A stretch of 42,559 nt of DNA from Acidobacteriota bacterium (GTDB taxonomy: Bacteria > Acidobacteriota > Polarisedimenticolia > Gp22-AA2): positions 18,827 to 61,385 of the forward strand of contig QHXZ01000026.1 of NCBI GenBank assembly GCA_003223165.1, in the 5' to 3' direction. The notes beneath the pieces are model-generated. The model saw only the letters and a program-made list of their open reading frames with translations. It made no database searches and had not been told where the DNA came from. Shown here in pieces: positions 10,768 through 30,854 of this stretch. Positions within the stretch are counted from its first letter, which is position 1. Every line of letters starts with the position of its first letter. A program made the translations under genes and the position numbers.

Positions 10768-13341
10768 TCACTCCAGCACGATGTTCAAGAGCTTGCCGGG
10801 AAGGTAGATCGTCTTGCGCACGGGTCGGCCGGCCAGCAGGGCGCCCAGGCGCGCGTCCCCCCGCGCCCGCTCCAGGACTTCCGCCTCGGGGAGGGAGGCC
10901 GGCACGACCAGGCGGCCGCGCAGGCGGCCGTTCACCTGCACCACGACCTCCGCCTGCTCCTCCTTGAGCCAGCCGGCGTCGGCTCCGGGCCAGGGTTGCT
11001 CGGCGACGCTCCCCTGCCCTCCCAGGGCGGACCAGAGGGCCTCGGAGATGTGCGGCGCGAAGGGATGCAGCAGCAGGGCCATGGTGACGCAGGCCTCCTT
11101 GAGATAGGGGCCGTCCTTCGGGGTCGCGGAGCGTTCGAACTCCTGGGTCGCGTTGAGCAGCTCCATGATCGCCGCCACCGGAGTGTTGAGGTGCAGGCGC
11201 TTCTGGACGTCCACGCTGACGCGCTCGATCGTCTGGTGCACCTTGCGACGCAGGGCGGCGAGGCGTGGCTCCTCGGCGCCATCCCGAGGGGCGGGCAGCG
11301 CCATGGCGGCCAGGGTCGACGCGCGCGGCATAACCAGCCGCCAGATCTTTTCCAGGAACCGGAAGCACCCCTCCACCCCCTTCTCGTTCCATTCCAGGTC
11401 CTTCTCGGGCGGCGCCGCGAAGAGCGTGAACAGGCGGGTGGTGTCGGCGCCGTAGCGCCGCACCATGTCGTCCGGGTCGACGATGTTCCCCTTCGACTTC
11501 GACATCGCGGTGCCGCCCTTGAGGACCATCCCCTGGCAGAGCAGGTTGCGGATCGGCTCGCCGCGCTCGAGCAACCCGATGTCGCGCAGCACCTTGGCGA
11601 AGAAGCGGCAGTAGATCAGATGCATGGTGGCGTGCGTGATGCCGCCGACGTACAGATCGATCGGCAGCCAGCCCCCCACGATCGCGGGATCGAAGGCGGC
11701 CTTGTCGTTGCGCGGGTCGCAGTAGCGGTAGAAATACCAGGACGAGTCGAAGAAGGTGTCCATGGTGTCGGTCTCGCGCCGGGCCGGGCGGCGGCAGCGC
11801 GGGCACGGGGCGTTCACGAACGAGGCCACCTGCGCCAGCGGCGATCCGCCTTCCCCCGTCAGAGGCGCGTCCTCGGGCAGCACGACCGGCAGATCCGCCT
11901 CCGGGACCGGCACCACGCCGCAGCCATCGCAGTAGAGCACGGGGATCGGTGTCCCCCAGTAGCGCTGCCTCGAAATTCCCCAATCCAGGATCCGGTAGCG
12001 CACCGTTCCGGTGGCGAAGCCTCCCTCTTCCCCCCGGCGCAGCAGGATGAGGCGCGCCTCGGCGGAGGTGCGGCCGGACGCCTCCCCCGAATCGACCAGG
12101 ACGCCGTCCTCGACCATGGCGGGCTGCGGCGCGGCGGCCGCCTGCCCGGATCCCGGCGGGACCACGACGGTGCGGATCGGCAGGGCGTACTTGCGGGCGA
12201 ACTCGTGGTCGCGCTCGTCGTGCGCCGGCACCGCCATGATCGCCCCGGTGCCGTACTCCATCAGCACGAAGTTGGCGACCCAGATCGGCACCCGCTCGCG
12301 GCTGAAGGGGTTCTGCGCCCTGAGGCCCGTGTCCACCCCCTCCTTCTCTTCGGGCTCCGCCCCCGCCCGGGACACGTCCCGGCGCGCCGCGCGCTCCTCG
12401 AACGCGCGCACGCGCGCCTTCTCCGGGCTTCCGTCCGGGAGGCTCGCGAGGATCGGGTGGCCGGGGGCGACGACGCAGAAGGTCGCGCCGAAGATCGTGT
12501 CGAGCCGCGTGGTGAAGACCTCGAGCGCTCCCGCACGGGCCTGCCCCGGCCCGTCGAGGATGGGAAAGCGCACCAGGGCTCCCTGGCTCTTGCCGATCCA
12601 GTTGCGCTGCATCGCCCGCACGCGTTCCGGCCAGCCGGGGAGGCGGTCGAGCTCGGCGTCCAGCTCCTCGGCGTAGCGCGTGATGCGCAGGAACCACTGC
12701 TCGAGCTCTTTGCGCCCCACGAGCGAATCGCAGCGCCAGCAGCGCCCCGCTTCCACCTGCTCGTTCGCCAGGACGGTCCGGCACGAGCTGCACCAGTTGA
12801 CCCAGCGTCGGCTGCGGTAGGCCAGGTCGCGCTCCAGCATCTTCAGGAAGAACCATTGGTTCCAGCGGTAGTACTCGGGACGGTGCGCGGCGATCTCACG
12901 CTCCCAATCGTAGGAGAGGCCCAGGCGCCGCAGCTGGGCCGCCATGGCGGCGATGTTCTCGTTGGTCCAGCGGGCGGGATGAATGCCGTGCTTGATGGCG
13001 GCGTTCTCCGCCGGCAGTCCGAAGGAGTCCCAGCCCATGGGGTGCAGGACCTGGAAGCCTCGCATGCGATTGAAGCGGGCCACGGCGTCTCCGATCGCGT
13101 AGTTGCGCACGTGGCCCATGTGCAGCCGGCCGGAGGGGTACGGCAGCATCTCCAGGCAGTAGAACTTGCGCCCCTGGGGCCGGACCGGGGCGGCGGAGGC
13201 GCGCGCCCGCTCCCAGCGCTCCTGGCAGGCGCGCTCGAGGGCGTCGAACTCCTCCCTGTACTCCACCGGCATGGCGATGCTCCCGGACATGCGGACCTGC
13301 GCCGGCAGCGGGTGCGGCGCGCCCCGCGGAGGGGGCGTCAT
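10768..13341 (-). CDS. leuS: Leucyl-tRNA synthetase
   Basis: 857-aa ORF with the class I HIGH motif (RLHMGHVRNY), a KMSKS-type motif (AMSKSKGN), and CP1 editing and Zn-like Cys motifs. The true start is probably internal: ATG at 13272 gives MPVEYREEF preceded by GGGAG, or ATG at 13290. The first ~23 aa of the longest ORF are Pro-rich and look non-native. Confidence 0.96.
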   Translation of the reverse strand: MTPPPRGAPHPLPAQVRMSGSIAMPVEYREEFDALERACQERWERARASAAPVRPQGRKFYCLEMLPYPSGRLHMGHVRNYAIGDAVARFNRMRGFQVLHPMGWDSFGLPAENAAIKHGIHPARWTNENIAAMAAQLRRLGLSYDWEREIAAHRPEYYRWNQWFFLKMLERDLAYRSRRWVNWCSSCRTVLANEQVEAGRCWRCDSLVGRKELEQWFLRITRYAEELDAELDRLPGWPERVRAMQRNWIGKSQGALVRFPILDGPGQARAGALEVFTTRLDTIFGATFCVVAPGHPILASLPDGSPEKARVRAFEERAARRDVSRAGAEPEEKEGVDTGLRAQNPFSRERVPIWVANFVLMEYGTGAIMAVPAHDERDHEFARKYALPIRTVVVPPGSGQAAAAPQPAMVEDGVLVDSGEASGRTSAEARLILLRRGEEGGFATGTVRYRILDWGISRQRYWGTPIPVLYCDGCGVVPVPEADLPVVLPEDAPLTGEGGSPLAQVASFVNAPCPRCRRPARRETDTMDTFFDSSWYFYRYCDPRNDKAAFDPAIVGGWLPIDLYVGGITHATMHLIYCRFFAKVLRDIGLLERGEPIRNLLCQGMVLKGGTAMSKSKGNIVDPDDMVRRYGADTTRLFTLFAAPPEKDLEWNEKGVEGCFRFLEKIWRLVMPRASTLAAMALPAPRDGAEEPRLAALRRKVHQTIERVSVDVQKRLHLNTPVAAIMELLNATQEFERSATPKDGPYLKEACVTMALLLHPFAPHISEALWSALGGQGSVAEQPWPGADAGWLKEEQAEVVVQVNGRLRGRLVVPASLPEAEVLERARGDARLGALLAGRPVRKTIYLPGKLLNIVLE

Positions 13342-13491: not shown

Positions 13492-14649
13492 GTGCGGCAC
13501 CCGGCAACGGCCATCGAGGCGCGCGCGAGGTTCGGCGCGGCGGCGCGGAGGAGCGGGCTCCTCGCCCTGCTGGCCGCGCCCCCCGGCTCCACCTGCCGCG
13601 ATGAGGCCCTGCGCGCGGCGCTGCTGGCGCTGCCGCCAGGCGCCATTCCGTCGCTGCTCGAGCGCATCGCCTTCCACCGCATCGACGGCCTGGCCTGCCG
13701 CGCTCTCGATCGGCTGCCCCAGGAAGGCCTCGACCCCTGGCTGCGCTCCTCCCTGAGGCGGCGCCATCAGCGCTTCGCCGCCGCCACCCTGGCCCAAGGC
13801 ATGGCCCTCGCGGAGCTGCTGGACGATCTGCACCGCCGTGGCGTGCCTGTCGTGGTCATGCGCGGCCTGCGCAGCGTGGAATCGATCTACGGCGACGTCG
13901 GATCGCGGCCCTTCGAGGACCACGACCTCCTGGTCCTCCCCCGCGACCTGGGCGCCACGCGCGACAGCCTTCTTGGGCGGGGCTTCGTCGAGCAGGCGCC
14001 CGGCCTGCTGCGCCGCGGCGGCATGATCGTCGACCTGCACGTCGACCCCCTGGGGGCGCGGCGCCGACCCACGCGCGAGGCGGTCTACCCGATCGCCACG
14101 GCGCCGCTCTTCGAGCGCGCCGAGAGCGTGCGCGTGGCGGGGGCGCCGGCCCTGGCGCTCGGCCTCGAGGACGACCTGCTCTTGCTGGCCATCCACCTGG
14201 TCAAGCATTCCTTCGACCGTCTGATCCGCACCGCCGACCTGGCGCACCTGCTGGCCTCGCGGCGCGACCTCCTCGTCTGGGAGGCGCTCCTGGAGCGCGC
14301 GGCCTCGTCCAACACCCGGCGGCTCCTGGGTTGGGCCCTGGAGGCGGCGGTGGCCCTCGGCGCGCCGGTGCCCGCGGCGCTCCTGCCGCTCGTCGCGCCC
14401 GACAGCCTGGAAGCGGTCCTGATGCACCGGGTCCTCGATCAGCGGCCGGTCCCCTACACGGGAGAGATCCTGATGGTCCTGGCCGCGCCGACCCTCGGCG
14501 CCCGCCTGCGTTTCCTGTGGGACGCGCTGTTTCCCGCCGGCGAATCGGCGGCCGGGCCATGGGAACGGGCCGCCGCGCTCCCTCGCCGGAGCGCCGAACT
14601 GGCCCTGCAGGCGGCTCGTCAGGCCGCCGAGAGGAGGAAGGCACGATGA
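13492..14649 (+). CDS. Uncharacterised nucleotidyltransferase family protein (PF14907/NTP_transf_5-like)
   Basis: The ORF is open from ATG 13426. I prefer the in-frame GTG 13492 because 13436..13460 is AT-richer promoter-like DNA and GGAGAG precedes 13492. Family-like features are HRIDGLACRAL, VVVMRGL...YGDVGSRPFEDHDLLV (D-x-D type NTase core), IVDLHVDP and a helical C-terminal half. The stop overlaps the next start (ATGA). Confidence 0.7.
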   Translation: MRHPATAIEARARFGAAARRSGLLALLAAPPGSTCRDEALRAALLALPPGAIPSLLERIAFHRIDGLACRALDRLPQEGLDPWLRSSLRRRHQRFAAATLAQGMALAELLDDLHRRGVPVVVMRGLRSVESIYGDVGSRPFEDHDLLVLPRDLGATRDSLLGRGFVEQAPGLLRRGGMIVDLHVDPLGARRRPTREAVYPIATAPLFERAESVRVAGAPALALGLEDDLLLLAIHLVKHSFDRLIRTADLAHLLASRRDLLVWEALLERAASSNTRRLLGWALEAAVALGAPVPAALLPLVAPDSLEAVLMHRVLDQRPVPYTGEILMVLAAPTLGARLRFLWDALFPAGESAAGPWERAAALPRRSAELALQAARQAAERRKAR

Positions 14650-14960
14650 CTCCGCCACGCCCCGCGTCGCCCCCGATGCGGCCGTCCCCCGACGTCGTCT
14701 CGCGACGCATCGCCGGCGAGTATCTCCTGGTGCCGGTGTGCAACGGCGCGGCCCAGATGGACTTCATCTTCACCGCCAACGAGGTCGGCAGCGTCGTCTA
14801 CCGCCTGCTGGACGGGCGGCGCGATGCCGCCGAGATCGCCCGGCTCGTCAGCCAGGAGTTCGAGGTGCCGGAGGAGCGCGTCCGGGAAGACGTGGAGGGG
14901 TTCCTCGCGACCCTGCAGGAGGCCGGCCTGGTGCGCCCCGCGGAGCCGGAGCCAAGGTGA
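14646..14960 (+). CDS. PqqD-family protein (RiPP recognition element / peptide chaperone)
   Basis: 104 aa, taken from the tail of track ORF 14331..14960. PqqD pattern: GEYLLVPV...MDFIFTANEVGSVVYRLLDGRRDAAEIARLVSQEFEVPEERVREDVEGFLATLQEAGLV. ATGA overlap upstream and GTGA overlap downstream. Confidence 0.8.
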   Translation: MTPPRPASPPMRPSPDVVSRRIAGEYLLVPVCNGAAQMDFIFTANEVGSVVYRLLDGRRDAAEIARLVSQEFEVPEERVREDVEGFLATLQEAGLVRPAEPEPR

Positions 14961-16270
14961 GCGCCTGCCAGGATGTGTCATACGGCGAGTTCGGCTCCCT
15001 CCTGATGCGCGCCGCCGGCGGGGCGCGGGTTCCGTTGTCGGGATCGATCGAGCTCACCTTCCGCTGCAACCTGCGCTGCGTGCACTGCTACATCCCCGAT
15101 TACTCGGGGCGAGGCGAGATGTCCACCGCCGAGATCACCCGCATCCTCGACGAGATCGCGGACGAGGGGTGCCTGTGGCTGCTCCTCACCGGCGGCGAGG
15201 TCTTCCTGCGCGCCGATTTCCCCGAGATCTACCGGCACGCCAAGCGGCGCGGCTTCCTGATCACGATCTTCAGCAACGGGACGCTCGTCGACGAGCGGCT
15301 CGCCGACCTGCTCGCGGAGTATCCGCCGTTCGGCATCGAGTTCACGCTCTACGGCCTGTCGGACGAGACCTACCTGCGCACCACCGGGTTCCCGGGCCGC
15401 TTCAGCCGCGTGCGCCGGGGCATCGACCTCCTGCTGTCGCGGCGCCTGCCGCTCTCGCTGAAGGCGGTCGCGATGGAGCCGCTGGCGGGCGAGATCGAGG
15501 CGATGCAGGAGTTCTGCGCCGCGCTCGGCGTCCGCTTCCGCTACGACGCCATGGTGCATGGCCGCCTGGATGGATCGCTTGCGCCCACGACGGCGCGCTC
15601 CACCCCCGAGTCGGTCGTGGCCTATGACGCGCGCGACCCCGAGCGTCTCGGCGAATGGCTCAAGTTCTACCGCCAATACGTGGCGCCGACCCGGCCCACC
15701 CCCTACTTGATGTCCTGCGGCGCGGGGGTCAACAGCTTCCACATCGATCCGAAGGGGACCCTCCTGACCTGCGAGGCGCTGCCGCTCAACGGCTACGATC
15801 TGCGGCGCGGCACCTTCCGCGAGGGGTGGTACGGCGTCGCCGCAGCGCTGCGCGAGCGGCTGGCGGGCCCCGAGAACGTCTGCGCTCCGTGCGAGCTGAA
15901 GGCGCTGTGCGACCGCTGCCCGGCGACCGCCACCCTCGAGACCGGCAGCCCGGACGGCTGGATCCCCTACTACTGCGAGGTCACGCATCGCCGCGCCGCC
16001 CTGCTCGAGGAGGCCCTGGATCGCCCCGAGACCGCGGCGCGCTACCGCGCGCACGCAGAGCGCGTGGCCCAAGGCTGGACGCCTCCGGGCGCCATCCTGC
16101 CGCGGGCCAGCGCGCTGCAGGCATCCCCCGCCGTCGCCTGCGGCAGCGGCGGTGGCGCCTGCGCCGGAGGCGGCTGCGGGGCCGGCTCGGGCCGCACCAC
16201 GAATCCGAAACCGATCGCCATTGAGGGTCCCGGCGCGCGTCCGGAGACCGGGAAGGAGGTTGTCCCATGA
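14957..16270 (+). CDS. Radical SAM enzyme with a SPASM-type auxiliary-cluster domain (peptide-modifying maturase candidate)
   Basis: In-frame part of track ORF 14738..16270. The GTG start at 14957 overlaps the PqqD stop; ATG at ~15006 is an alternative. Motifs: CX3CX2C (CNLRCVHC), LLLTGGEVFL (SAM-binding GGE), a SPASM-like region (CGAGVNSFHIDPKGTLLTC ... CAPCELKALCDRC ... YYCEV), and a Gly/Cys-rich tail. Confidence 0.9.
   Translation: MSACQDVSYGEFGSLLMRAAGGARVPLSGSIELTFRCNLRCVHCYIPDYSGRGEMSTAEITRILDEIADEGCLWLLLTGGEVFLRADFPEIYRHAKRRGFLITIFSNGTLVDERLADLLAEYPPFGIEFTLYGLSDETYLRTTGFPGRFSRVRRGIDLLLSRRLPLSLKAVAMEPLAGEIEAMQEFCAALGVRFRYDAMVHGRLDGSLAPTTARSTPESVVAYDARDPERLGEWLKFYRQYVAPTRPTPYLMSCGAGVNSFHIDPKGTLLTCEALPLNGYDLRRGTFREGWYGVAAALRERLAGPENVCAPCELKALCDRCPATATLETGSPDGWIPYYCEVTHRRAALLEEALDRPETAARYRAHAERVAQGWTPPGAILPRASALQASPAVACGSGGGACAGGGCGAGSGRTTNPKPIAIEGPGARPETGKEVVP
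16254..16259 (+). promoter_or_regulatory. Shine-Dalgarno (AGGAGG) for the 63-aa peptide ORF
   Basis: AGGAGG lies at 16254..16259, with a 7-nt spacer before ATG 16267. Confidence 0.6.
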
Positions 16271-16458
16271 AGCGCGACAATCGAGGGGCGGGCGGTGCAT
16301 CCCGCCGGCCATACGAGCCGCCGCTCCTGCGGCGCGTGCGGCTGGTGCCCGACGAGGCGGTCCTGGCGTCGTGCAAGAACAACGCGACGGCAGGCCCGGC
16401 CGGCCCGATCCAGAAGTGCGCCACGAACCCGGCGATCTGCTCGCACAGCGCCTCCTGA
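16267..16458 (+). CDS. Candidate RiPP precursor peptide (63 aa)
   Basis: Sequence: MKRDNRGAGGASRRPYEPPLLRRVRLVPDEAVLASCKNNATAGPAGPIQKCATNPAICSHSAS. It has a consensus SD, its ATG overlaps the rSAM stop (ATGA), and the kinase ATG starts 1 nt after its stop. By my hand count about 57 of 63 codons end in G/C, as in real genes here. The leader has Y16-x-x-P19-x-L21; the C-terminal part has Cys36, Cys51 and Cys58 and ends in Ser. Confidence 0.6.
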   Translation: MKRDNRGAGGASRRPYEPPLLRRVRLVPDEAVLASCKNNATAGPAGPIQKCATNPAICSHSAS

Positions 16459-16459
16459 C

Positions 16460-17407
16460 ATGGCCGCCTCGCTGATCCTCGAGGTCGCCCGCATCGGGCT
16501 GCGCATCGCGGCGCCCGACCCCGCCATCCGGCTGGTGGCCGAGCCGGCGCACAAGCCGTTCCTGGCGCACGACGCCGTGGGGGACTGCGCCTCCGTCCTG
16601 ATCGGGCCGGCCTCCGGGCGCACGGCGCGCCGCGCCCCGGGCAAGACGCTGTTCGAGACCGGATCGGTCTGGCGTCTGGAGGAGCTGGGCGAGAACCATC
16701 TCCTGACCTTCCGCTCGCCGATCTTCGGCAAGGAGCCGTACCTGTCGGTCGAGTTCGACCGCGACTACAGCCGCGGCCAGGGAGAGACCCTCGATGGGGG
16801 GCCGATTCTCGCCGCGGGCGAGCTGCATCCTTTCGTCTACCCGTTCGACGAGGTGGTCTTCCTGGCGCGCCTGTCGCGCGGCCGCGGCGTCCTGGTGCAC
16901 GCCTGCGGCGTGTCCTTCGAGGGGCGCGGCCTGCTCTTCCTCGGGACGTCCGGCGCCGGCAAGAGCACCATGGCGCGCCTGTGGAAGGAGCGGCAGGGGG
17001 TGACGATCCTCTCGGACGATCGGATCGTCATCCGCGCCGACGGGGGCGGCTACCGGATCTTCGGCACCCCGTGGCACGGCGAAGCCGGATGGGAAGCGCC
17101 CGCCTCGGCGCCCCTGGCGGGGGCCTTCATCCTCGACCAGGCGCCGCGCAACGCGGTCGTCGACCTGTCCCCCTCCGCGGCGGTGGCCCAGATGATGGTG
17201 CGTGCCTTCCCTTCGATGTGGGACCAGGAAGGGCTCGAGTTCGCGGTCCGTTTCCTCGCCGACCTGGCGGATCGCGTCCCCGTGCGTCTGCTGAAGTTCC
17301 TCCCGGAACCCACCGCGATCGATCGCGCCCTGGCGGCGCTTCCCCATCGCGGCGGGAGCGTCGGCCCGGATGAATCCGCATACGACGGCACGGAGGAACC
17401 GCGATGA
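16460..17407 (+). CDS. HPr-kinase-related P-loop kinase (HprK C-terminal-domain-like)
   Basis: In-frame part of track ORF 16295..17407, starting MAASLILEVARIG. The core VLVHACGVSFEGRGLLFLGTSGAGKSTMARLW...ILSDDRIVI...IFGTPWHGE resembles the HprK/P catalytic domain and the stand-alone HprK-related kinases of RiPP clusters. Confidence 0.8.
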   Translation: MAASLILEVARIGLRIAAPDPAIRLVAEPAHKPFLAHDAVGDCASVLIGPASGRTARRAPGKTLFETGSVWRLEELGENHLLTFRSPIFGKEPYLSVEFDRDYSRGQGETLDGGPILAAGELHPFVYPFDEVVFLARLSRGRGVLVHACGVSFEGRGLLFLGTSGAGKSTMARLWKERQGVTILSDDRIVIRADGGGYRIFGTPWHGEAGWEAPASAPLAGAFILDQAPRNAVVDLSPSAAVAQMMVRAFPSMWDQEGLEFAVRFLADLADRVPVRLLKFLPEPTAIDRALAALPHRGGSVGPDESAYDGTEEPR

Positions 17408-17841
17408 CTCAAATCCTGGTCGTGGACGACGAGCTGCCGATCCGCGAGGTGCTGATCGAGTTCCTGTCCGATCATGGCTACACGGCCCAGGGGGCCGAGG
17501 ACGGCCCGCAGGCGATCGCCCTGGTCCGCTCCCTCAAACCCCAAGTGATTCTGCTGGACATCGCCATGCCCGGCATGAACGGCATCGAGACGCTCAAGCG
17601 CCTGCGCGAGCAGGCGCCGGGCTCCGCCGTCATCATGATCAGCGGCCACGCCGACCACGAGATGGCCCTCCAGGCGCTCGACCTCGGAGCCTACGACTTC
17701 ATCCAGAAGCCGCTCGATCTCAAGTACCTCGAGCGCACCCTGCTCGCCAAGATCGTGACCCTGGAGCCGGCCGCGGGGCGCGATGCCCAGGAGGAGAGCC
17801 GCAATGCGTCCCACGGCAGCACAGGCCGGCGCGCCCGGTAG
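17404..17841 (+). CDS. Single-domain response regulator (CheY-like receiver)
   Basis: 145 aa with ILVVDDE, LLDIAMPGMNG (phospho-acceptor Asp), ISGHAD and FIQKP (conserved Lys). ATGA overlap with the kinase gene. Confidence 0.9.
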   Translation: MTQILVVDDELPIREVLIEFLSDHGYTAQGAEDGPQAIALVRSLKPQVILLDIAMPGMNGIETLKRLREQAPGSAVIMISGHADHEMALQALDLGAYDFIQKPLDLKYLERTLLAKIVTLEPAAGRDAQEESRNASHGSTGRRAR

Positions 17842-20155
17842 CCAGGCCGCCGCGCCGGCCCTGCCGGCCCTCCTGGCCGACCGCCAGGGCGTGGTCTTCG
17901 TCGCCACCGCCCGCGGCGTGGAGAGCCTGCGGGTGCCGCGGCGCTACTGGGGCACGCAGGTCGGCGTCGTGCCAATCCCCGCGAGCGACGAGGAGATCCG
18001 GGCGGCCGAGCTGGGGCCGCCCCCGGACGCCGGCACCTGGCCCCAGGTCGTGTCCCGCCCCGACCTGCTGGCGCCGGCCCTGTCGCGCCTGGTCTCCGGC
18101 GAGCACGTCGAGCTGAGCCTGCAGCCCGGACGCGACGGGCTCAAGGCCTCGCTCCTGACGGCCCACGGTGACGAGCAGCCTTTCCCGATCGCCCCCAAGG
18201 ACGCGCTGGGCTTCCTGGCGGCGGTCTTCCAGCACGCGCCGCGCGGCGTGGTGACCACCGGCCTCCAGAAGCCGCCGCGCGTGCTGCTGAGCGTGCGCCC
18301 CGCCGTGCGTCGCCACGAGTACCGCCTGCGGCTGGCCGGGGTGGTGGCCGTCGGGCCGCCCTCGACCCTCTCCGACATCGGGCTCTCCCCCGCCGTGCTG
18401 GAGATGGCCCTGGAAAGCCTCGATCGCCTTGCCGGCATCATGCTGGTGTCCGGCGCACCGACATCGGGGCGCAGCACCACGCTCGAGCTGATGGCGGCGG
18501 CCCTCGTGGCGCGCGGGCGCAGGGGCGGGCGGATCGGCGCCCGGCGCCCTGCCTCGAAGGTGGACCTGACGTGGCTGGCCGACGCGGTCCCCGACTGGCC
18601 GTTCCCCGAGAGCCTGCGCGCGGCGGGATCCGACTTCGTGCTGATCGAGACCCTGGAGGGACCTGGCGATCTCGTCCTTGCGGCGCGCCTTGCCGCCAGC
18701 GGCTGCCTGGTCCTGGCCGGGGCGCCGGCGGCGGAGCCCGAGGCGCTGGCCCGCACCGTGGAGCGCGATCTCGAGGCCGGATCGGCGCCGGCCGTCCCGG
18801 TCGTGGTCCTCAGCCAGGCCCTGGTGCGCACCGTCTGCCGCGGCTGCCTGACCTGGCGCACCATCCCCGCCGAAGAGGCGCGCCGCCACCGCTTCCACCG
18901 GCGGGACGTCGAGGAGATGGAGCGGCGCGGCGGCCTGGCCGTGCCGGTCGGAGGGGGTTGCGGCGACTGCGCCGGCACCGGGGCGCTCGGCCTCACCGGC
19001 GTCTTCGAGCAGGTCGGCCCCGACGCCGGCGCCGGCACCCTGCCGCGCCTGCGCGAGGACGGATGGCGCAAGGCATTGCAGGGGATCGCCTGCCTCGACG
19101 ACGTCGCGACCCTGCCTGGAGCGCAGCGGAGCCTGCGCACTCTGCGCGAGATCATGGTGCACGCCGGCCTTGGCCCGGCGGGGATCGAGCTCCCCTCCCT
19201 GGACGAGCGGCGCCGCGCGCCGGCCACAGGGCCGGCGGCGCCGCCCGCCACCCGCGCCTCCCCGCCCGCCGCGCGACGCGAGACCCCGGCCGCCACGCCC
19301 GCCGCCCCGGAAGCCGACCTGCTGGCGCGCCTGCTGCGCGAGGCGGGCGCAGGGACGAAGGTCGACCCACAGGCCCTGCCGCGGCTGGCCGCGACCCTGG
19401 CGGAGCGCGGCGCCGGCCAGGCGTCGCTGCAAGGATCCCTGGCCATCGCCAGGGGGTTCCGCCTCGCCGCGCATGCCGTCAATTCCGCCCTGATCGCGGC
19501 ACGCATCGCATCCTGCCTCGGCTCGGACGTCGATGCTGCGGGGATCGCCCTGCTGGCGCTGGTTCACGACGCGGGGCTCCTCGACGCCGGCGTCGACCCC
19601 GACGCCGACCTCCCCGCGGTCCTTTCGGAGGAGGTCCTCGACCCGAAGGAGGCGCGCCTGGCCCCTTCCGCCGCCCTGCGCCGCCTGGGTCTCGTCGACA
19701 CGGGGCTCGACGGTCTCGTCGGACAGGTGCACGCGCTCCTGCGCTTCGATCCACCCGCGGCCGCCGAACGGGCGCGCGCCGACCTGCGGGCGCAGGTCGT
19801 GGCGCTGGCCAGCCTGGTGGACCTGCACTTCCAGGCCCAGGCGGTCATGGAGCAGCACGGCCGCCGCTTCAACCCTTCGCTGTTCCGCGCCCTGCTGCGT
19901 GCCATTCCGATCTTCCCGATCGGGGCTCTGGTCGAGCTGAGCAGCGGCGATCTGGCGCGCATCGTCTCGCTCAACGAGGACAACCACTTCCGGCCGCGGG
20001 TCGAGATCGCGGCCGCGACCGGCGCCGAGGGGCTGGCGGAGCGGCGCGTTGTGGATCTGGCCCGCGCCCCCTTCCTGCACATCCGCCAGCGCGTCAGCGG
20101 GCTGGTCCCCGGGGCGGTCCCCGCCGCCGCGCCGGCACGGGGAGGCGCGCGGTGA
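17804..20155 (+). CDS. GspE/PilB-family (T2SS/T4P ATPase-like) protein with degenerate catalytic motifs, Pro/Ala-rich linker and a C-terminal degenerate HD-GYP-like domain
   Basis: Track ORF 17783..20155. The start is uncertain: ATG 17783, ATG 17804 or GTG 17891. GspE-like segments: GIMLVSGAPTSGRSTTLELM (Walker A with K replaced by R), SDFVLIETLEGPGD (in place of PDxIxVGEIRD), SGCLVLAGAPA (in place of TGHLVxSTLHT), and the retained tetracysteine VCRGC...CGDCAGTG. The C-terminus has HAVNSA...LALVHDAGLL and the typical tail IFPIGALVELSSGDLARIV, but no HHExxDGxGYP. Confidence 0.75.
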   Translation: MRPTAAQAGAPGSQAAAPALPALLADRQGVVFVATARGVESLRVPRRYWGTQVGVVPIPASDEEIRAAELGPPPDAGTWPQVVSRPDLLAPALSRLVSGEHVELSLQPGRDGLKASLLTAHGDEQPFPIAPKDALGFLAAVFQHAPRGVVTTGLQKPPRVLLSVRPAVRRHEYRLRLAGVVAVGPPSTLSDIGLSPAVLEMALESLDRLAGIMLVSGAPTSGRSTTLELMAAALVARGRRGGRIGARRPASKVDLTWLADAVPDWPFPESLRAAGSDFVLIETLEGPGDLVLAARLAASGCLVLAGAPAAEPEALARTVERDLEAGSAPAVPVVVLSQALVRTVCRGCLTWRTIPAEEARRHRFHRRDVEEMERRGGLAVPVGGGCGDCAGTGALGLTGVFEQVGPDAGAGTLPRLREDGWRKALQGIACLDDVATLPGAQRSLRTLREIMVHAGLGPAGIELPSLDERRRAPATGPAAPPATRASPPAARRETPAATPAAPEADLLARLLREAGAGTKVDPQALPRLAATLAERGAGQASLQGSLAIARGFRLAAHAVNSALIAARIASCLGSDVDAAGIALLALVHDAGLLDAGVDPDADLPAVLSEEVLDPKEARLAPSAALRRLGLVDTGLDGLVGQVHALLRFDPPAAAERARADLRAQVVALASLVDLHFQAQAVMEQHGRRFNPSLFRALLRAIPIFPIGALVELSSGDLARIVSLNEDNHFRPRVEIAAATGAEGLAERRVVDLARAPFLHIRQRVSGLVPGAVPAAAPARGGAR

Positions 20156-20803
20156 GCGCCGCGCGGGTCGCGGCCGACGAGACGATCGAGCGTGAGGCCG
20201 CCCCGGTGCTCGAGGCGCTGCTCGAGGAGGGGCACCTCGCCTCCGTCCCGGTGCGCGGCGCGAGCATGCGGCCGGCGCTCCTGGACGGGGACCTGGCGCT
20301 GGTCTCCCCCTTCCTGGGGCTGCCCGTCCCCGGACAGATCGTCCTGGCGCGGCAGGCGGGGAAGCTGGTGGCGCACCGCCTGGTCGGCGTCGAGATGCGC
20401 GCGGGCCGGCGCCTCTATCGCCTCCAGGGCGACGCCGAGCCGGCGCCCGATCCCGGCCTGCTGCGCGAAGATCTCCTCGGGCGCGTCGGCGCGGTCATCC
20501 GCCAGGGCCGCCGCCTGCCGCTCGAGGACGGCCCTGTCACCCTCGTCCGGCTGCGCCTGCTTCGCGCGCTCCGGAGGCGCGGCGCGCTCCTGCTCGCGGC
20601 GGCCCTGCTGCTGGCGGCGGCGCTCGGCTTCGCGCGCTTCGCGGCGGCCGACCAGGAGGCGACCGTGGCGCCCTCCCTCGATTACCGCTTCGCGGCGGGC
20701 GACGTGCTCAGCCTGCGCATCTGGAACGGCGAGCGGATCGACGAGCAGAAGCTGACGGTGCAGAGCGACGGCGAGGCCTTCCTGCCGATCATGGGGATCG
20801 GCG
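20152..20803 (+). CDS. S24/S26-family Ser-His type peptidase domain, followed in frame by a signal-peptide/TM-like segment and the N-terminal part of a Poly_export (Wza/OPX) domain
   Basis: Tail of track ORF 18571..21069, with a GTG start overlapping the previous stop (GTGA). Peptidase motifs: VPVRGASMRPALLDGDLALV (GxSMxP), KLVAHRLVG (His where P-type SPases have Lys, as in SipW/Sec11-type) and LQGDAEPAPD. Then comes RRRGALLLAAALLLAAALGFARFAAA, then Poly_export-like LDYRFAAGDVLSLRIWNGE...VQSDGEAFLPIMGIG. Beyond ~20803 this frame turns into G/A/P/R-rich nonsense up to its stop at 21069. Confidence 0.6.
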
Positions 20804-21523
20804 CTCGTCGAGGTCAAGCAGGCGCTGGAGCAGAAGCTCAAGGGTATCTACAAGGAGACCCACGTGGAGCTCCTGGTGACCAAGTTCGGCGGCCACCTGG
20901 TGCACCTCATGGGGGAGGTGCGCACCACCGCGCGCACCGACAGCGGCCCCGGCGAGTGGGCCCTGCGCGGCCCCACGCGCCTGGTGGGCTTCCTGTCGGA
21001 CCACGGCGGGCCGGGAACGGACGCCGACCTGATGCGCATCCTGCTGGTCCGGCCGGGCCAGAGGCGTGAGGTGAACCTGTTCCGGGCCGTCTTCCAGGGC
21101 GCGGAGGAGGACGATCCCTGGCTGGAGTCGGGCGATCTCGTCTTCGTCCCGTCGCAATCGATGGGCAACCGCAAGGTCTTCGTGCTCGGCGAGGTCAATA
21201 CGCCCGGAGTCATCAACATCCTCGACAAGATGGGGCTCGTGGAGGCGATCGCGCGCGCCGGCGGCTTCACGCAAAGGGGTTACATGAAGGGCGTCGTGGT
21301 GCTCAAGCGCGGCGTGGACGGCCAGGCCGAGATGCGGGTGGCCAACTTCAAGCAGATGGTCAAGGAGGGGGACCTGAGCGCCGACGTCCCGCTGCAGCCG
21401 GGCGACATCGTCTTCGTGCCGCGCCGCGCCATCGCCACCCTGCAGGAGCTCTTCTCCATCATCAACCCGGCCCTCGGGATCATCGAGTCGATCTACATCA
21501 TCGACAATTTCAGAAAGCAGTGA
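20804..21523 (+). pseudogene. Remainder of the Wza-like outer-membrane polysaccharide export (OPX) protein, in the +1 frame relative to its N-terminal part (frameshifted gene or sequence error)
   Basis: Track ORF 20864..21523 begins at a GTG, but this frame already reads LVEVKQALEQKLKGIYKETHVELLVTKFGGHLVHLMGEV from ~20804. That is the expected continuation of Poly_export. SLBB-like segments follow: VFVLGEVNTPGVINI, LVEAIARAGGFT, GDIVFVP. This frame has a TGA at 20753..20755. Confidence 0.75.
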
Positions 21524-21524: not shown

Positions 21525-23705
21525 ATGAGCGCCCAATACGACCTGAACCTCCAGGATTACTTGAGGATCCTGCGACGCCGCTGGAAGGTGGTGGCGGGCT
21601 GCTGCCTGGCCCTCGGCACCCTGACCCTGCTCCTGACGCCGCGTGCGCGGCCGCTCTACGAGGCGAGCGCCCGGGTCAAATGGACGCGTACCGACAGCAT
21701 CACCGGCCTGTTCCTCGAGGCCTTCAGCTGGAGCCCCGGCGACGACCTGGCGACGCAGGCGCAGATCATCACCAGCAAGCCGGTCGCCCTGAAGGCCGCG
21801 CAGAAGCTGGGGCGCATCCCGGCCACGGCCACGGTCGATTCGGTCCTCGAGGACAAGGCGCTGTCGGCCGCGCTGGACGCGTTCCTGGCCGGCTACGGCG
21901 CCAAGCCGATCGAGAACACCAGCCTGATCGAGATCCGCAGCGCCTGCCCTTCAGCCGACGAGGCGGTGCAGGTCGCCAACGCCGTCATGGAGGAATACAT
22001 CCTACGCCATACCTTCGAGCGCAACCGGCAGGCGATCGAGGCGCGCGAGTTCGTGCAGTCGCAGGTCGGCGCGGTGGCCGACCGCCTGCGCTCGTCCGAG
22101 GAGCGCCTGACGCGCTTCAAGGAGGCGAACGTCGGCGCCAGCATGCCGGACGCCAAGGAGGTCCAGTACTTCCAGGACGAGGCGGGCCGGACCGAGGCGC
22201 GCGTCGTGGCGCTCCAGGGCCTGGCGGCGCTGCTCGAGCAGCCCGGCGACCCCGGCTCCTCCCCCGAGCTGCTGCTGGTCGACCTCCCCGAGGAAGGCCT
22301 CGCCGGCGCCCGCGCCGAGCTCGCCAAGCTGGAGGACCACAAGCGCCAGCTGCTCGCCTTCCAGAAGGACGATGCCCCCGAGGTGCGCTCGGCGCAGGAG
22401 CAGATCGACCGCCTCACCGAGCGGCTGCGGCGCGAGACGCGCACGGCGCTGGGCCTGTCGCTCGAGCGCAAGAAGGAGCTCGACGCCAAGCTGGCCCGCT
22501 TCCCGCGCGCCGAGCAGACGCTCCTGCAGCTGCAGCGCGAGGTGCAGGTGAACGCCGAGGCGTACGAGATGCTGATGCGCAAGCACCAGGAGGCCCTCAT
22601 CAAGGAGGCCGACAAGGTGCAGGAGCTGTCCGTCGTGGAGAGCGCCACCCGGGCCACTCCCCGCCACGCGCCGGGCCGCCTGCTGCGCTCCCTGATCGGC
22701 CTCATGGTCGGGCTGCTGCTCGGGCTGGTCGCGGCCTTCGTGGTCGAGAGCCTCGACACCTCGATCGGCAGCATCGAGGATGTCGAGGAGTACCTGGGCC
22801 TCTCGGTGATCGGCGTCGTGCCCCACATCGACTTCGAGGCTACCCGGCGCGACATCATGAAGGTCAACCCGGCGCTGGCCAACGACCCCACCCTCGAGGG
22901 CTTCGCCTCCCTGGTGACGCAGTTCGCGCCGCAGTCTCCGGTGGCCGAGGCCTTCCGCGCCCTGCGCACCAACCTCGAGTTCTCGCGCATCGGCAAGGCG
23001 GGCCGGACTTTCCTGTTCACCTCGGCGTCGCCCAGCGAAGGGAAGTCGACGACCGTGGCCAACCTCGGCGTGGCCATGGCGCAGATGGGCAAGAAGACCC
23101 TGATCTGGGACTGCGACCTGCGCTCCCCGGCCGTCAATCGTCTTTTCGGCGTGCCGCGCGAGCCCGGCTTCACGCACGTGGCGCTCGGCATGGCGCGCCT
23201 GGACGACGTCCTGCACCGTTTCTCGGACGTCTTCCTGGGGCGCATCGACATGCGCTCGATGCTGTCGTCGGCGGGGCTCGAGAACCTGCACATCCTGACG
23301 GCGGGCGCCCTGCCCCCCAACCCGTCCGAGCTGCTGGGGTCTCCGCTGCTCAACGACTTCATCGTCGAGGTCGCCTCGCGCTTCGACGTCATCCTGATCG
23401 ACGCGCCGCCGGTCCTGCCGGTCACCGACGCCGTCATCCTCTCGACGCGCGTGGACGGCGTGGTGCTGGTCTACCAGACCGGCCGCATCGGCCGCGCCGT
23501 CCTCAAGCGCGCCAAGTCGCACCTGGACAACGTGCGCGCCGCCATCCGCGGCATCGTGCTGAACGACATCAAGGCCGAGGTCAGCACGACCCCCGAGATG
23601 CAGTACATCTACGAGCGCTACGCGCCGAAGGTCCGCGAACAGAGGGACCCGGGGGACGAGGCGCCGGCCTCGGGGCCGACGATCGCTGCCGCCGGCAAGC
23701 GCTAG
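21525..23705 (+). CDS. Polysaccharide co-polymerase / BY-kinase (Wzc-like chain-length determinant fused to a tyrosine autokinase)
   Basis: 726 aa. It has a Wzz-like N-terminus with TM, a long coiled-coil periplasmic region, a second TM (LIGLMVGLLLGLVAAFVV), a CpsD/CapB-type P-loop (FTSASPSEGKSTTVANLG), Walker A' (VILIDAPPVLPVTDA), and the Tyr cluster QYIYERY near the C-terminus. Confidence 0.9.
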   Translation: MSAQYDLNLQDYLRILRRRWKVVAGCCLALGTLTLLLTPRARPLYEASARVKWTRTDSITGLFLEAFSWSPGDDLATQAQIITSKPVALKAAQKLGRIPATATVDSVLEDKALSAALDAFLAGYGAKPIENTSLIEIRSACPSADEAVQVANAVMEEYILRHTFERNRQAIEAREFVQSQVGAVADRLRSSEERLTRFKEANVGASMPDAKEVQYFQDEAGRTEARVVALQGLAALLEQPGDPGSSPELLLVDLPEEGLAGARAELAKLEDHKRQLLAFQKDDAPEVRSAQEQIDRLTERLRRETRTALGLSLERKKELDAKLARFPRAEQTLLQLQREVQVNAEAYEMLMRKHQEALIKEADKVQELSVVESATRATPRHAPGRLLRSLIGLMVGLLLGLVAAFVVESLDTSIGSIEDVEEYLGLSVIGVVPHIDFEATRRDIMKVNPALANDPTLEGFASLVTQFAPQSPVAEAFRALRTNLEFSRIGKAGRTFLFTSASPSEGKSTTVANLGVAMAQMGKKTLIWDCDLRSPAVNRLFGVPREPGFTHVALGMARLDDVLHRFSDVFLGRIDMRSMLSSAGLENLHILTAGALPPNPSELLGSPLLNDFIVEVASRFDVILIDAPPVLPVTDAVILSTRVDGVVLVYQTGRIGRAVLKRAKSHLDNVRAAIRGIVLNDIKAEVSTTPEMQYIYERYAPKVREQRDPGDEAPASGPTIAAAGKR

Positions 23706-23717
23706 GGGGCCGGGGCC

Positions 23718-25085
23718 ATGCCCGATTCCACCCCCTCCCTCCCGCTCCGGAAGGCGACCCTGGCCGCCGCCCTCGGAGCGCTCCTCCTCCCTCTCTCCCT
23801 CTGGATCGCCGAGGCGCCCCCCCAGGCGCCGCTGCTCGCCACCCTGGCCGCCATCCTGTTCCTGGCCACGCTCCTGCACGCCGAGGCCGGGCTGGTCATC
23901 CTGATCGTCTCGATGCTCTTCTCGCCGGAGATCGGTCTGGGCGGAGGGGGCGGGACGAGCCTCGAAGCGAGCCGCTCCTTGACGCTGCGCACCGAGGACC
24001 TGGTGCTCCTCCTGGTCGGGTTGGCCTGGATGGCGCGCATGGCGATTCACAAGGACCTCGGAGCGGTGCGCCGCACCCGGTTGAACGCGCTCATCTTCGC
24101 CTATTGCGCCTGCTGTCTCTTCTCCACGCTCCTGGGCATCGAGGCCGGACGCGTCGCGCCGCTCGTGGGTCTCTGCTTCGTGGCGAAATACGTGGAGTAC
24201 TTCATCATCTTCTTCATCACGGTCAACTACGTCGGCAGCCAGACGCAGCTGCGCCGCCTCCTGGTGGCGGTGCTGATCACCGGCGCCCTGATCACCGCCT
24301 ACGCCTACTGGCAGATCCCGCAGGGGATCCGTCCCTCGGCCCCGTTCGAGGGAAGCGAGGGGGAGCCGAACACGCTGGGCGGCTACCTGGTCCTGATCTT
24401 CAGCCTCAGCAGCGGCCTGGCGCTGACCATCCCCGAGCGGATCTGGAAGCGCTCCTGCGCCGTCCTGGCGGCGGCCACCGTCCCGCCGTTGCTCGCCACC
24501 CTGTCCCGCAGCTCGTGGATCGCCCTCGTCGTGTCGCTGGGCGCGCTCCTGACGCTGAGCGCGGCGCGGCGCCGGCTGGCCGCCGCCGCCATCGTGGCCG
24601 CCGCCCTGCTCTTCTTCCTCCAGCCGCAGAAAGTGGAGGACCGCCTGCTGTACACCTTTCAGGGCGAGGAGCACGGCACCCTCTCCGTCGGCCACGTGCG
24701 GCTCGACTCTTCCGCTTCGGCGCGCATCTCCTCGTGGGGCGGCGCCCTGGTCGGGTTCGTGCGGCACCCGATCGCCGGCTGGGGGGTCACCGGTTACGGG
24801 TTCCTCGACGCCCAGTACTTCCGCGTCCTGGTCGAGCTGGGCCTCCTCGGCTTCAGCGACTTCGCCCTGCTGCTGGGCACCGCCGGGACCGCCTTCTACC
24901 GGGCCTTCCGCCTCCTCAAGGACCCGCTGCATCGTGGCCTGGGCCTGGGGATGACGGCGGCGCTGGCGGGCCTTCTGGCGCATGCCATCGGCACCAACAC
25001 CTTCATGCTCATCCGCATCATGGAGCCGTTCTGGCTGCTCGCCGGGCTGTGCGTCGCCGCGCCTTCGCTGGAGGAGCCGGCATGA
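23718..25085 (+). CDS. O-antigen ligase / Wzy-like polysaccharide polymerase family membrane protein
   Basis: 455 aa and polytopic, with a Wzy_C-like core (LATLSRSSWIALVVSLGALL ... RISSWGGALVGFVRHPIAGWGVTGYG). Confidence 0.75.
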   Translation: MPDSTPSLPLRKATLAAALGALLLPLSLWIAEAPPQAPLLATLAAILFLATLLHAEAGLVILIVSMLFSPEIGLGGGGGTSLEASRSLTLRTEDLVLLLVGLAWMARMAIHKDLGAVRRTRLNALIFAYCACCLFSTLLGIEAGRVAPLVGLCFVAKYVEYFIIFFITVNYVGSQTQLRRLLVAVLITGALITAYAYWQIPQGIRPSAPFEGSEGEPNTLGGYLVLIFSLSSGLALTIPERIWKRSCAVLAAATVPPLLATLSRSSWIALVVSLGALLTLSAARRRLAAAAIVAAALLFFLQPQKVEDRLLYTFQGEEHGTLSVGHVRLDSSASARISSWGGALVGFVRHPIAGWGVTGYGFLDAQYFRVLVELGLLGFSDFALLLGTAGTAFYRAFRLLKDPLHRGLGLGMTAALAGLLAHAIGTNTFMLIRIMEPFWLLAGLCVAAPSLEEPA

Positions 25086-29985: not shown

Positions 29986-30854
29986 GGGGGTCCCCCGGCC
30001 GGCGCGGCTCGCCTCTTCCGCCCACCCGCCCCTGCCCGGCCTGCGGCGTGCGCCTGTTCACCGGCGGCGCGGCCGCCGGCCGGGCCGGTCCGCTCCGGCC
30101 GCGTCCGGTCCGCTGCACCGCCTGCGATCTGGTCTTCATCGACCCGCTCCCCGGCGCCGCACTCTCCCCTTCGGCCTACGGTCCGGAGTACTACGAGCCC
30201 TGGCAGGCGCGCGAGGAGGTCCCTCGCACGGCGCTCTGGAGGCGCCGCCTGCGGCAGATCGCGCTGAGGGCCCCGATCGGCTCCCTGCTCGACGTCGGGT
30301 GCGGCGATGGGCTGTTCCTGTCGATCGCGCGTCAGGCCGGGTGGGCGGCGGAGGGGATCGAGTTCTCCCCCGAGGGGGCGCGGCGCGCTTCCTTGCGGCT
30401 GGGGCGCCCGGTGGCCGTCGGCGACCTGTCCCGCGAGCGCGTGCTGCGCGGGCCCTTCGACGTCATCACGCTCTGGCACGTGCTCGAGCACCTCGCCGGG
30501 CCCGGCGCCATGCTCGAAGCGGTCCGCCGGCGACTGGCGCCCGGCGGGCTCCTGGTCGCGGCGGTGCCGAACCTGGACAACCTGCCGATGCGCGCCGCCT
30601 ACCGCGTGGTGCGGCGCCGCCCGCTGCCGCTCTACGAGGACGGGGCGCGTGAACCGCACCTCAGCCATTTCAGCCCGGTGACCCTGACCCGGGCGCTGGA
30701 GCGCCACGGTTTCCTGGCCGTGCGGGTCGAGGCCGACCGCTGCGCCCTGGCGCCGGCCAAGAGGGCTCTCGACGCCGTCGCCGCGCTGCTGTCGCGCCTC
30801 TGCGGCCGCATCCTGACCGATGCCATCGTCGCCTTCGCGAGGGCCCCGCGATGA
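29982..30854 (+). CDS. Class I SAM-dependent methyltransferase with an N-terminal Cys4 zinc-ribbon
   Basis: In-frame tail of track ORF 29439..30854 with an ATGA overlap. Features: CPACG...CTACDLVF, SAM motif I LLDVGCGDGLF, and ITLWHVLEHL. Confidence 0.85.
   Translation: MRGSPGRRGSPLPPTRPCPACGVRLFTGGAAAGRAGPLRPRPVRCTACDLVFIDPLPGAALSPSAYGPEYYEPWQAREEVPRTALWRRRLRQIALRAPIGSLLDVGCGDGLFLSIARQAGWAAEGIEFSPEGARRASLRLGRPVAVGDLSRERVLRGPFDVITLWHVLEHLAGPGAMLEAVRRRLAPGGLLVAAVPNLDNLPMRAAYRVVRRRPLPLYEDGAREPHLSHFSPVTLTRALERHGFLAVRVEADRCALAPAKRALDAVAALLSRLCGRILTDAIVAFARAPR

Follow-up and report, generated by a model that had tools for sequence, protein, structure and literature searches.

A widespread, putative RiPP-type cassette joining a radical SAM/SPASM enzyme, a PqqD-family protein and an HprK-like kinase to a small three-cysteine peptide in an Acidobacteriota genome

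A stretch of 42,559 nucleotides from an Acidobacteriota bacterium (Polarisedimenticolia; Gp22-AA2; assembly GCA_003223165.1, contig QHXZ01000026.1, positions 18,827 to 61,385 of the forward strand), hereafter referred to as the window, was analysed around a group of five open reading frames (ORFs). These encode a PF14907 nucleotidyltransferase, a PqqD-family protein of the recognition element (RRE) type found in pathways for peptides that are made by the ribosome and modified after translation (RiPPs), a radical S-adenosylmethionine (rSAM) enzyme with a SPASM-type C-terminal region, a small Cys-containing peptide and an HPr-kinase-like P-loop protein. Comparison with related loci suggests, with a probability that we put at about 0.6, that the region represents one copy of a RiPP-type cassette that is widespread and so far uncharacterised, and in which an RRE-guided rSAM step would be combined with leader-dependent phosphorylation of a Ser residue.

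The window has a G+C content of ~72%, and the five ORFs sit between a divergent leuS gene and a long plus-strand operon (Table 1). A preliminary description of this DNA had reported them as tightly packed and had named their families, and both points were confirmed: consecutive frames overlap in ATGA at 14646, GTGA at 14957 and ATGA at 16267, and between the last two lies a single nucleotide, 16459. The ATG of the peptide gene is preceded by GGAGG 8 nt upstream, and the nucleotidyltransferase has an alternative TTG start at 13426. The limit of the module at 17407, given in the same description, did not hold, as the kinase stop codon overlaps the ATG of a response regulator gene (ATGA at 17404) and no terminator-like sites were found between 13200 and 21700. 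No matches were returned by an Rfam scan of the window. When all five cassette proteins were scanned against NCBIfam (June 2026), no family scored above its cut-off, and the peptide remained without any match.

Table 1. Positions of the cassette genes, their sequence landmarks and neighbouring features in the window
Feature	Position	Strand	Evidence or remark
leuS	10768-13341	-	
PF14907 nucleotidyltransferase	13492-14649	+	PF14907 E 6.9e-35, 121.2 bits vs gathering 31.2
PqqD-family RRE, 104 aa	14646-14960	+	PF05402 E 1.1e-15
Radical SAM/SPASM enzyme, 437 aa	14957-16270	+	PF04055 E 4e-23
CxxxCxxC motif of the rSAM enzyme	15065-15088	+	
CxxCx5CxxC cluster of the rSAM enzyme	15881-15919	+	
C-terminal extension of the rSAM enzyme	16007-16270	+	residues ~351-437
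Putative precursor peptide, 63 aa	16267-16458	+	small-ORF homologues in 79/83 loci
Peptide Y16-x-x-P19-x-L21	16312-16329	+	
Peptide C36-K37	16372-16377	+	
Peptide S63	16453-16455	+	
HPr-kinase-like P-loop protein, 315 aa	16460-17407	+	GTSGAGKST; matches to HprK-type families
Kinase G162-T170	16943-16969	+	
Response regulator receiver protein	17404-17841	+	PF00072 E 4e-32
790-aa protein, weak T2SSE/GspE-like ATPase region	17783-20155	+	PF00437 4e-6, TIGR02533 1.6e-7, far under cut-offs
S24/S26 peptidase domain fused to Poly_export/SLBB protein	20152-21523	+	PF00717 2e-7, PF02563, TIGR02228 7.9e-8
S24 domain of this fusion	~20152-20650	+	first ~165 residues of the ORF
Exopolysaccharide/O-antigen-type locus	21525-38000, on to 41.3 kb	+	
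Asn-synthase homologue, intact glutamine amidotransferase domain	39376-41337	+	ends the exopolysaccharide locus; best model XrtA/PEP-CTERM-system amidotransferase

Relatives of the rSAM enzyme were sought in one genome per GTDB species, and at least 582 species-representative genomes were found to encode one; 80 of these loci were kept, and in them the cassette itself was confirmed. A protein search with the window enzyme returned 1,615 proteins at E ≤ 1e-5, the nearest homologues coming from Candidatus Polarisedimenticolia and other Acidobacteriota metagenome-assembled genomes (MAGs). The locus comparison as a whole comprised 83 non-redundant loci from many phyla; the kept loci were assigned to Acidobacteriota, Chloroflexota, Myxococcota, Nitrospirota, Omnitrophota, Aminicenantes, Desulfobacterota, Planctomycetota, one Bathyarchaeia bin and other taxa. 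Six-frame ORFs of every locus were searched first with the window proteins and then with hidden Markov models built from those matches. Single-linkage clustering of six-frame ORFs was noisy, since antisense and fused frames merge, and was used solely for the ABC exporter and the giant proteins described below.

Co-occurrence was counted in the 61 non-redundant loci that extend at least 1.5 kb upstream and at least 3 kb downstream of the rSAM gene. The small peptide and the kinase were each present in 58 of these and never one without the other, PqqD in 57, an S24/S26 peptidase domain in 54 and the PF14907 nucleotidyltransferase, at variable positions, in 24. The conserved core is made up of the PqqD RRE, the rSAM/SPASM enzyme, the ~60-aa peptide, the HprK/ScmC-like kinase and a Sec11/SipW-type S24/S26 peptidase, and the nucleotidyltransferase is an accessory member. 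With the nucleotidyltransferase accessory and the peptidase part of the core, the conserved unit differs from the five-gene set of the preliminary description, which was not upheld as such; its statement that no protease lies adjacent was wrong for the family and arguably for the window as well, where a peptidase domain begins at 20152. Conservation of the small ORF beside the rSAM/PqqD pair had been named in advance as a point on which a RiPP interpretation could fail, and the ORF is conserved there. The RiPP-like character proposed at that time was also sustained, given a discrete PqqD/RRE protein, an rSAM/SPASM enzyme, a conserved small Cys-containing precursor and an HprK-like kinase.

The commonest gene order, PqqD-rSAM-peptide-kinase-S24, was seen in 28 loci, with a further 16 having the nucleotidyltransferase before or after it. 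The same genes, including the small ORF, occur in the same order in dozens of genomes, a recurrence that places the arrangement far beyond chance. Three unrelated contigs are fully syntenic with the window in their gene calls, running from LeuS through the nucleotidyltransferase, PqqD, rSAM, a 62-aa ORF, 'ScmC' (PF27840), a T2SSE-like protein and Poly_export to Wzz and Wzy. An Anaerolineales contig is annotated as PqqD, rSAM, an unannotated gap, ScmC and a 145-aa protein, and a homologous peptide is encoded in the gap. One locus (L017) has the S24 gene inside the cassette, between kinase and rSAM.

Two further variants of the arrangement were observed. PqqD is fused to the rSAM enzyme in L086 (539 aa), and in L022 (positions 3-2861) a second, divergent cassette of the order S24-kinase-PqqD-rSAM adjoins the main one, which suggests a wider superfamily of such cassettes.

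Peptide motif statistics were derived from an alignment of 73 non-redundant peptides. Their N-terminal part follows the consensus (K/R)(K/R)-P-Y-x-K-P-x-L-x-x-V-x-L-R-P-E-E-A-V-L-G-x-C-K, and the Cys-Lys pair is followed by ~11-13 variable Gly/Ser/Thr-rich residues, often including G-P, and then by C-x5-C-x3-G-S-stop. Residues Y(-20), P(-17) and L/V/I(-15) stand at a fixed distance from the invariant Cys-Lys in 72 of the 73 peptides, and the Lys beside the first Cys is invariant throughout the family. Counted from Cys-Lys, three Cys are present in 71 peptides; the last Cys lies 5 residues from the C-terminus in 63 and 6 residues in 9 more, and 68 peptides end in Ser and 4 in Thr. The corresponding landmarks of the window peptide are Y16-x-x-P19-x-L21, C36-K37, C51, C58 and S63. 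The cores are rich in Ser and Thr. Ahead of the first Cys, and numbered from it, V(-4)-L(-3)-[G/A/S/T](-2) is conserved and fits the -3/-1 small-residue rule of signal peptidases, from which we predict a core of the form x-C-K...G-S, 29 residues long in the window.

In a profile search covering a collection of 5.8 billion proteins, the peptide family amounted to 1,344 database clusters. Among the 120 clusters listed, those with a name were all called 'hypothetical protein' and none contained a Pfam domain; the best 120 database matches ended in Ser (115) or Thr (5), all 120 had three Cys, and 118 showed the 5-residue spacing. Neither NCBIfam (June 2026) nor Pfam holds a model for the peptide. 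There is usually one precursor gene per locus. In L013 (8035-8920), three tandem ORFs with the same leader were seen, two of them with aberrant or truncated cores, representing either multiple precursors or MAG frameshifts.

The rSAM enzyme carries CNLRCVHC at residues 37-44, and ten Cys residues (C37, C41 and C44, together with C254, C272, C309, C312, C318, C321 and C340) are invariant in 15 homologues; judged by sequence, this is a SPASM-type pattern of CxxxCxxC plus seven C-terminal Cys. Homologues are labelled 'radical SAM protein with 4Fe4S-binding SPASM domain' by the Joint Genome Institute (JGI). The nearest solved sequences in a PDB profile search were SkfB, PqqE, BlsE, CteB, SuiB and anSME, the alignment with anSME spanning residues 37-341. 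An AlphaFold2 model (predicted local distance difference test score 78, predicted template modelling score 0.75), in which the last ~50 residues (385-437) are predicted to be disordered, retrieved PqqE, SuiB, SkfB, anSME and CteB in Foldseek at template modelling scores of 0.5-0.65, a generic SPASM/twitch match that gives no clue to chemistry. Scores against curated models were 78 for MftC (cut-off 265), 59 for PqqE (381), 51 for AlbA (850), 48 for PapB (340) and 65 for StsB (625). These matches mark the protein as a peptide-type SPASM enzyme whose chemistry is not readable from its sequence or structural neighbours. In the window's clade the enzyme has a ~90-aa C-terminal extension, absent from homologues of ~365 aa, in which a GWTPPGAILPRA stretch is conserved and the tail, CGSGGGACAGGGCG, is rich in Cys and Gly.

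Sactipeptide and ranthipeptide systems (AlbA, SkfB, CteB/SCIFF, PapB) resemble the cassette in their SPASM-type rSAM enzymes, which include the nearest solved structures to the window enzyme, in RRE-dependent leader recognition and in a Cys-containing core. The cassette differs in having its RRE on a protein of its own and in its kinase, nucleotidyltransferase and S26 peptidase, none of which belongs to those pathways, and no curated maturase model was reached (AlbA, PapB and StsB, see above).

The PqqD plus rSAM/SPASM architecture is also that of PqqD/E and MftB/C, and the best full-length NCBIfam and PDB matches of the rSAM enzyme include MftC and PqqE. By analogy with PQQ and mycofactocin, the peptide could then be the precursor of a peptide-derived cofactor or of a metal-binding prosthetic molecule, for which a usually single precursor gene, strongly conserved termini, three invariant Cys and a very broad taxonomic range would be fitting. 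We nevertheless consider this improbable: the MftC and PqqE scores lie far under the equivalog cut-offs, the stretch that separates the Cys residues varies and is rich in Gly, Ser and Thr, no dehydrogenase or other cofactor-using enzyme co-occurs, and a kinase and a peptidase are foreign to known cofactor pathways.

Matches of the kinase in NCBIfam were all to HprK-type families and all under curated cut-offs (TIGR04355 HprK-related kinase B, 1.5e-10; ScmC, 2.4e-8; HprK, 8e-4; TIGR04352 HprK-related kinase A, 9e-4). Kinase orthologues carry a precomputed PF27840 'ScmC' assignment; with the local Pfam copy, no ScmC match was obtained on the window kinase. Key residues of the window protein are H147, G162-T170 and D186-D187, and in 75 homologues H147, G162-x-S-G-x-G-K-S/T170, D186-D187-R188 and G-T-P-W-H-G at 202-207 are invariant or nearly so. 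HPrK/P came out on top when the kinase profile was compared with PDB sequences (1jb1, 2qmh, 1ko7), at a marginal E of 2e-3, and the alignment with 1jb1 covers exactly the His, P-loop and DD stretch. Residues H147, G162, G165, G167, K168, S169, D186 and D187 have their counterparts in H148-G163-G166-G168-K169-S170-D186-D187 of the lasso peptide kinase BsfK, a motif validated by mutagenesis, and the D158A/D159A exchange renders PsmK inactive. The characterised HprK-type kinases of lasso clusters act on the full precursor before leader removal, and in the case of PadeK, ThcoK, SyanK and PsmK the phosphate goes onto the side chain of a conserved Ser at the C-terminus. As for the accessory nucleotidyltransferase, a G-S...D-H-D motif is visible in its sequence. 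In pseudomycoidin biosynthesis PsmN, annotated as an uncharacterised nucleoside triphosphate (NTP) transferase, is required if one or two hexoses are to be attached to the phosphate; we take PsmN to be a PF14907 member.

Phosphorylated lasso peptide clusters (paeninodin with PadeK, ThcoK/SyanK, pseudomycoidin with PsmK/PsmN, and Bradymonas with BsfK/BsfN) share several traits with the cassette: a discrete PqqD-type RRE, a YxxPxL leader, a conserved C-terminal Ser, an optional NTP-transferase gene and an HprK-family kinase with the H/G/G/G/K/S/D/D motif, which in lasso systems acts on the precursor and is stimulated by the RRE. YxxPxL is a conserved lasso-leader motif (-17 to -12) that interacts with the RRE protein B1 and was mutated in the BsfB1 study (PMC10368454). 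The preliminary description had seen a lasso flavour in this DNA, and the leader motif, the kinase motif and the PqqD protein lend it some basis, although the lasso model that is the best NCBIfam match of PqqD stays under its cut-off (lasso_PqqD_Strm, 35 bits vs 70; another lasso PqqD model, 22 vs 80). The differences are substantial. An rSAM/SPASM enzyme and an S26-type peptidase take the place of the Asn-synthetase-like cyclase and the B2 protease, the core is a three-Cys peptide, not a macrolactam-forming one, and YxxPxL lies 20 residues before Cys-Lys, compared with -17 from the Thr(-2) junction in lasso precursors.

Neither the module nor the called genes of five related loci included a lasso-type Asn-synthetase-like cyclase, in line with the earlier remark that none is adjacent; the sole Asn-synthase homologue in the window is of the exopolysaccharide type. 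Considered as a lasso cyclase, this homologue was rejected, as it passes the glutamine-hydrolysing AsnB model (TIGR01536, 411 vs 267) and scores 203 vs 525 against the lasso cyclase model NF033535. A transglutaminase-like B/B2 protease was absent from Pfam scans of those window ORFs that were submitted (not every ORF was scanned), and no transglutaminase-type protease appeared in the precomputed Pfam assignments of neighbouring genes in L001-L004, L085 and L086. As neither a cyclase nor a B2 protease was found with it, the cassette does not count as a lasso cluster.

A related explanation would make the region a remnant or hybrid of a phosphorylated lasso cluster that lost its cyclase and protease, acquired an rSAM gene by accident and serves no coherent function. 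The nucleotidyltransferase, PqqD and kinase do belong to the family types of lasso clusters with K and N genes, and YxxPxL in the leader and the lasso model as best PqqD match point the same way. The comparative data already contradict it, however, and we hold it to be extremely improbable: the same arrangement with an intact precursor has been kept across many phyla, which excludes a chance remnant, neither cyclase nor transglutaminase-type protease was seen among the genes called in the five related loci, the Asn-synthase homologue of the window is 22 kb away, and the core has no lasso-type N-terminal Gly with Asp/Glu at positions 7-9.

A close known parallel in gene content is SynChlorMet, a bioinformatically defined, uncharacterised system comprising ScmC (HprK-like), ScmD (PqqD-like) and two rSAM/SPASM enzymes, ScmE and ScmF (TIGR04248-04251, PF27840), for which, to our knowledge, no precursor is identified in the TIGRFAMs text. 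In both systems an HprK-like P-loop protein occurs together with a member of the PqqD family and with rSAM/SPASM enzymes, and ScmC, ScmD and ScmE are among the window matches. Identity was rejected because equivalog cut-offs were missed (TIGR04249, 33.7 vs 125; TIGR04248, 22.1 vs 100; TIGR04250, 69.6 vs 400) and the cassette has one rSAM enzyme, not two; in addition, a precursor is clearly identifiable in the window family, which also has an S24/S26 peptidase and, as an option, a nucleotidyltransferase. The second cassette of L022 was likewise rejected as a true SynChlorMet, its scores also being under the cut-offs. No description of a peptide cassette with an HprK-type kinase, rSAM/SPASM and PqqD was found in the literature within reach, which did not include the rSAM-RiPP atlases in subscription journals. 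HprK-type kinases in RiPP pathways appeared only in lasso papers in the searchable literature, and no paper on SynChlorMet was found, 'ScmC' turning up only as unrelated acronyms. The earlier view that this is not a described RiPP class stands in so far as no description was found, but the combination of HprK-like, PqqD and rSAM/SPASM proteins is already present in the SynChlorMet models.

The peptidase domain of the window, with Ser38 and His75, opens its ORF at a GTGA overlap (20152) and lies 2.7 kb downstream of the kinase in the same apparent operon. GxSMxP, HR and GD are invariant in 61 homologues of the domain. By sequence, the domain shares its Ser/His arrangement with Sec11/SipW, whereas bacterial LepB and LexA have Ser/Lys. 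The model that fits best is TIGR02228 (archaeal-type signal peptidase I), against which the window domain scores 32.3 (cut-off 51.85) and those of other loci 56 and 61, passing. The GxSMxP Ser nucleophile, the His rather than Lys in the 'HR' box and the TIGR02228 match liken the domain to Sec11/SipW-type (S26B) signal peptidases; it differs from them in lacking an N-terminal anchor, in a hydrophobic/amphipathic helix placed C-terminal to the domain and in often being fused N-terminally to a secreted protein. A weak match was also obtained to the model of the nickel superoxide dismutase (NiSOD) maturation protease, an S26-family enzyme that provides a precedent for propeptide trimming.

In the window ORF, the domain is followed by RRRGALLLAAALLLAAALGFARFAA-ADQ, which is signal-peptide-like, and then by the Poly_export domain, and in L001 and L003 the gene calls give the S24-Poly_export fusion as one gene, 470-486 aa long. 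Across the comparison, 26 of 66 S24 domains share a stop-to-stop ORF with at least 250 further residues, belonging to an exporter, a giant protein, a nucleotidyltransferase or a GNAT, and in the fusions inspected a signal-peptide-like helix stands between the domain and its partner. A GNAT acetyltransferase-like C-terminal domain is the partner in the ORFs after the kinase of L013, L034 and L036, and the PF14907 nucleotidyltransferase in L023 and L032.

On the RiPP interpretation, the product of the cassette is probably a small peptide that is both crosslinked and phosphorylated. PqqD would bind the YxxPxL leader of the 63-aa precursor and present it to the rSAM/SPASM enzyme and to the kinase. 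The former would crosslink or otherwise modify the three-Cys core (C36-K37...C51...C58), thioether bonds of the sactipeptide or ranthipeptide type being, by analogy, the most likely product. The kinase would phosphorylate a Ser/Thr hydroxyl in a leader- and RRE-dependent manner, with the C-terminal Ser as the likeliest site, given its near invariance and its fixed spacing from the last Cys. Where present, as in the window, the nucleotidyltransferase may decorate the phosphate, following the precedent of PsmN, without which phospho-Ser receives no hexose, and a cytoplasmic, C-terminally anchored S26-type peptidase would remove the leader. That Cys-x4-Ser might instead pass through phosphorylation, elimination and Cys addition, in the logic of lanthionine formation, is pure speculation.

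Several observations weigh against this interpretation. As the rSAM enzyme scores above the cut-off of no curated maturase family in the NCBIfam scan, the thioether is a guess from three conserved Cys. The kinase is only remotely related to lasso kinases (TIGR04352, E 9e-4). BsfK, which is strongly RRE-stimulated, has as its target Ser3 of the core, not the C-terminus, and with cores as Ser/Thr-rich as those found here, the phosphorylation site is uncertain. Two clade-specific genes part the S24 domain of the window from the kinase, and the frame of its fusion ORF shifts near 20795-20805 by tblastn, which marks a sequencing error or else a pseudogene. Often the S24 domain is joined to a secreted protein or stands ahead of one, the polysaccharide exporter in the window and giant C25/DUF11 proteins in other loci, and it may therefore process those, not the peptide. 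No exporter or immunity gene was found in the window. Finally, all kept loci are MAGs from uncultured organisms.

The surroundings of the cassette vary with lineage. The response regulator follows the kinase solely in the closest relatives (L005, L006 and L008), and the 790-aa T2SSE-like protein stands beside the cassette solely in Polarisedimenticolia-type loci (L001, L003-L010). The large exopolysaccharide/O-antigen-type locus that follows in the window encodes a Wzz/GNVR tyrosine-kinase-like protein, Wzy_C, several GT4 enzymes, GT9, a methyltransferase, WbqC, a DegT aminotransferase, a PIG-L deacetylase and an AsnB-type amidotransferase; within the window's clade, the cassette stands first in an operon for exopolysaccharide export and biosynthesis. 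Outside this clade, a giant secreted protein is very often encoded directly 3' of the cassette, in several phyla. Peptidase_C25 (gingipain family) was found in 18 loci and DUF11/CLIPPER repeats in 24, with either in 38 of 85 loci (L002, L018-L020, L022, L026, L029-L031, L040, L042-L046, L049, L052, L058-L059, L061-L065, L067, L069-L072, L075-L078, L080, L082, L084-L086). An ABC exporter was present in 14 loci. The giant C25/DUF11 proteins are often in the same reading frame as the S24 domain.

Such neighbours raise the question of whether the cassette is an accessory of envelope biogenesis instead of a stand-alone natural-product pathway, the peptide acting with the neighbouring secreted machinery (giant C25/DUF11 surface proteins in most lineages, polysaccharide export in the window) and the S24 domain processing the neighbour protein. 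The peptide could then be a regulator or inhibitor, a substrate that the C25 enzyme cleaves or transpeptidates behind the invariant Lys, or else a primer or anchor of the phospho-glycosyl type. The giant C25 and/or DUF11 (CLIPPER) proteins right after the cassette, the S24 fusions with their signal-peptide-like helices, the coupling to the exopolysaccharide operon with no terminator found, the invariant Lys beside the first Cys and peptide ends unusually conserved for an antibiotic-type RiPP all speak for it. On the other hand, the partner changes by lineage (exporter, C25, DUF11, GNAT or none), with which mere operon neighbourhood would also agree, about half of the loci have no such partner in their flanks, and the ABC exporters recall ordinary RiPP clusters. 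On balance, we regard an envelope accessory as unlikely, though it ranks second among the explanations considered.

The RiPP interpretation and a surface role might also be joined, in a new RiPP class whose members would be crosslinked three-Cys peptides with a phosphorylated and sometimes glycosylated C-terminal Ser, coupled to cell-surface assembly and not released as free antibiotics. The coupling could take the form of cleavage or transfer after the invariant Lys by the gingipain-like C25 protein, or of a phospho-linked exopolysaccharide primer or regulator. This extension should be read as quite unlikely.

If the reading as a RiPP-type cassette is correct, the loci compared here would represent a large, taxonomically broad and uncharacterised family of ribosomal peptides, easily mined by the motif K-K-P-Y-x-K-P-x-L ... 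E-E-A-V-L-G-x-C-K ... C-x3-G-S. It would join radical-SAM crosslinking to HprK-type phosphorylation, so far known only from lasso peptides, and would bring a Sec11/SipW-type peptidase into RiPP biosynthesis as the enzyme that removes the leader. The association with giant C25/DUF11 proteins and with exopolysaccharide export hints at a role of the peptide in the cell envelope over one in antibiosis.

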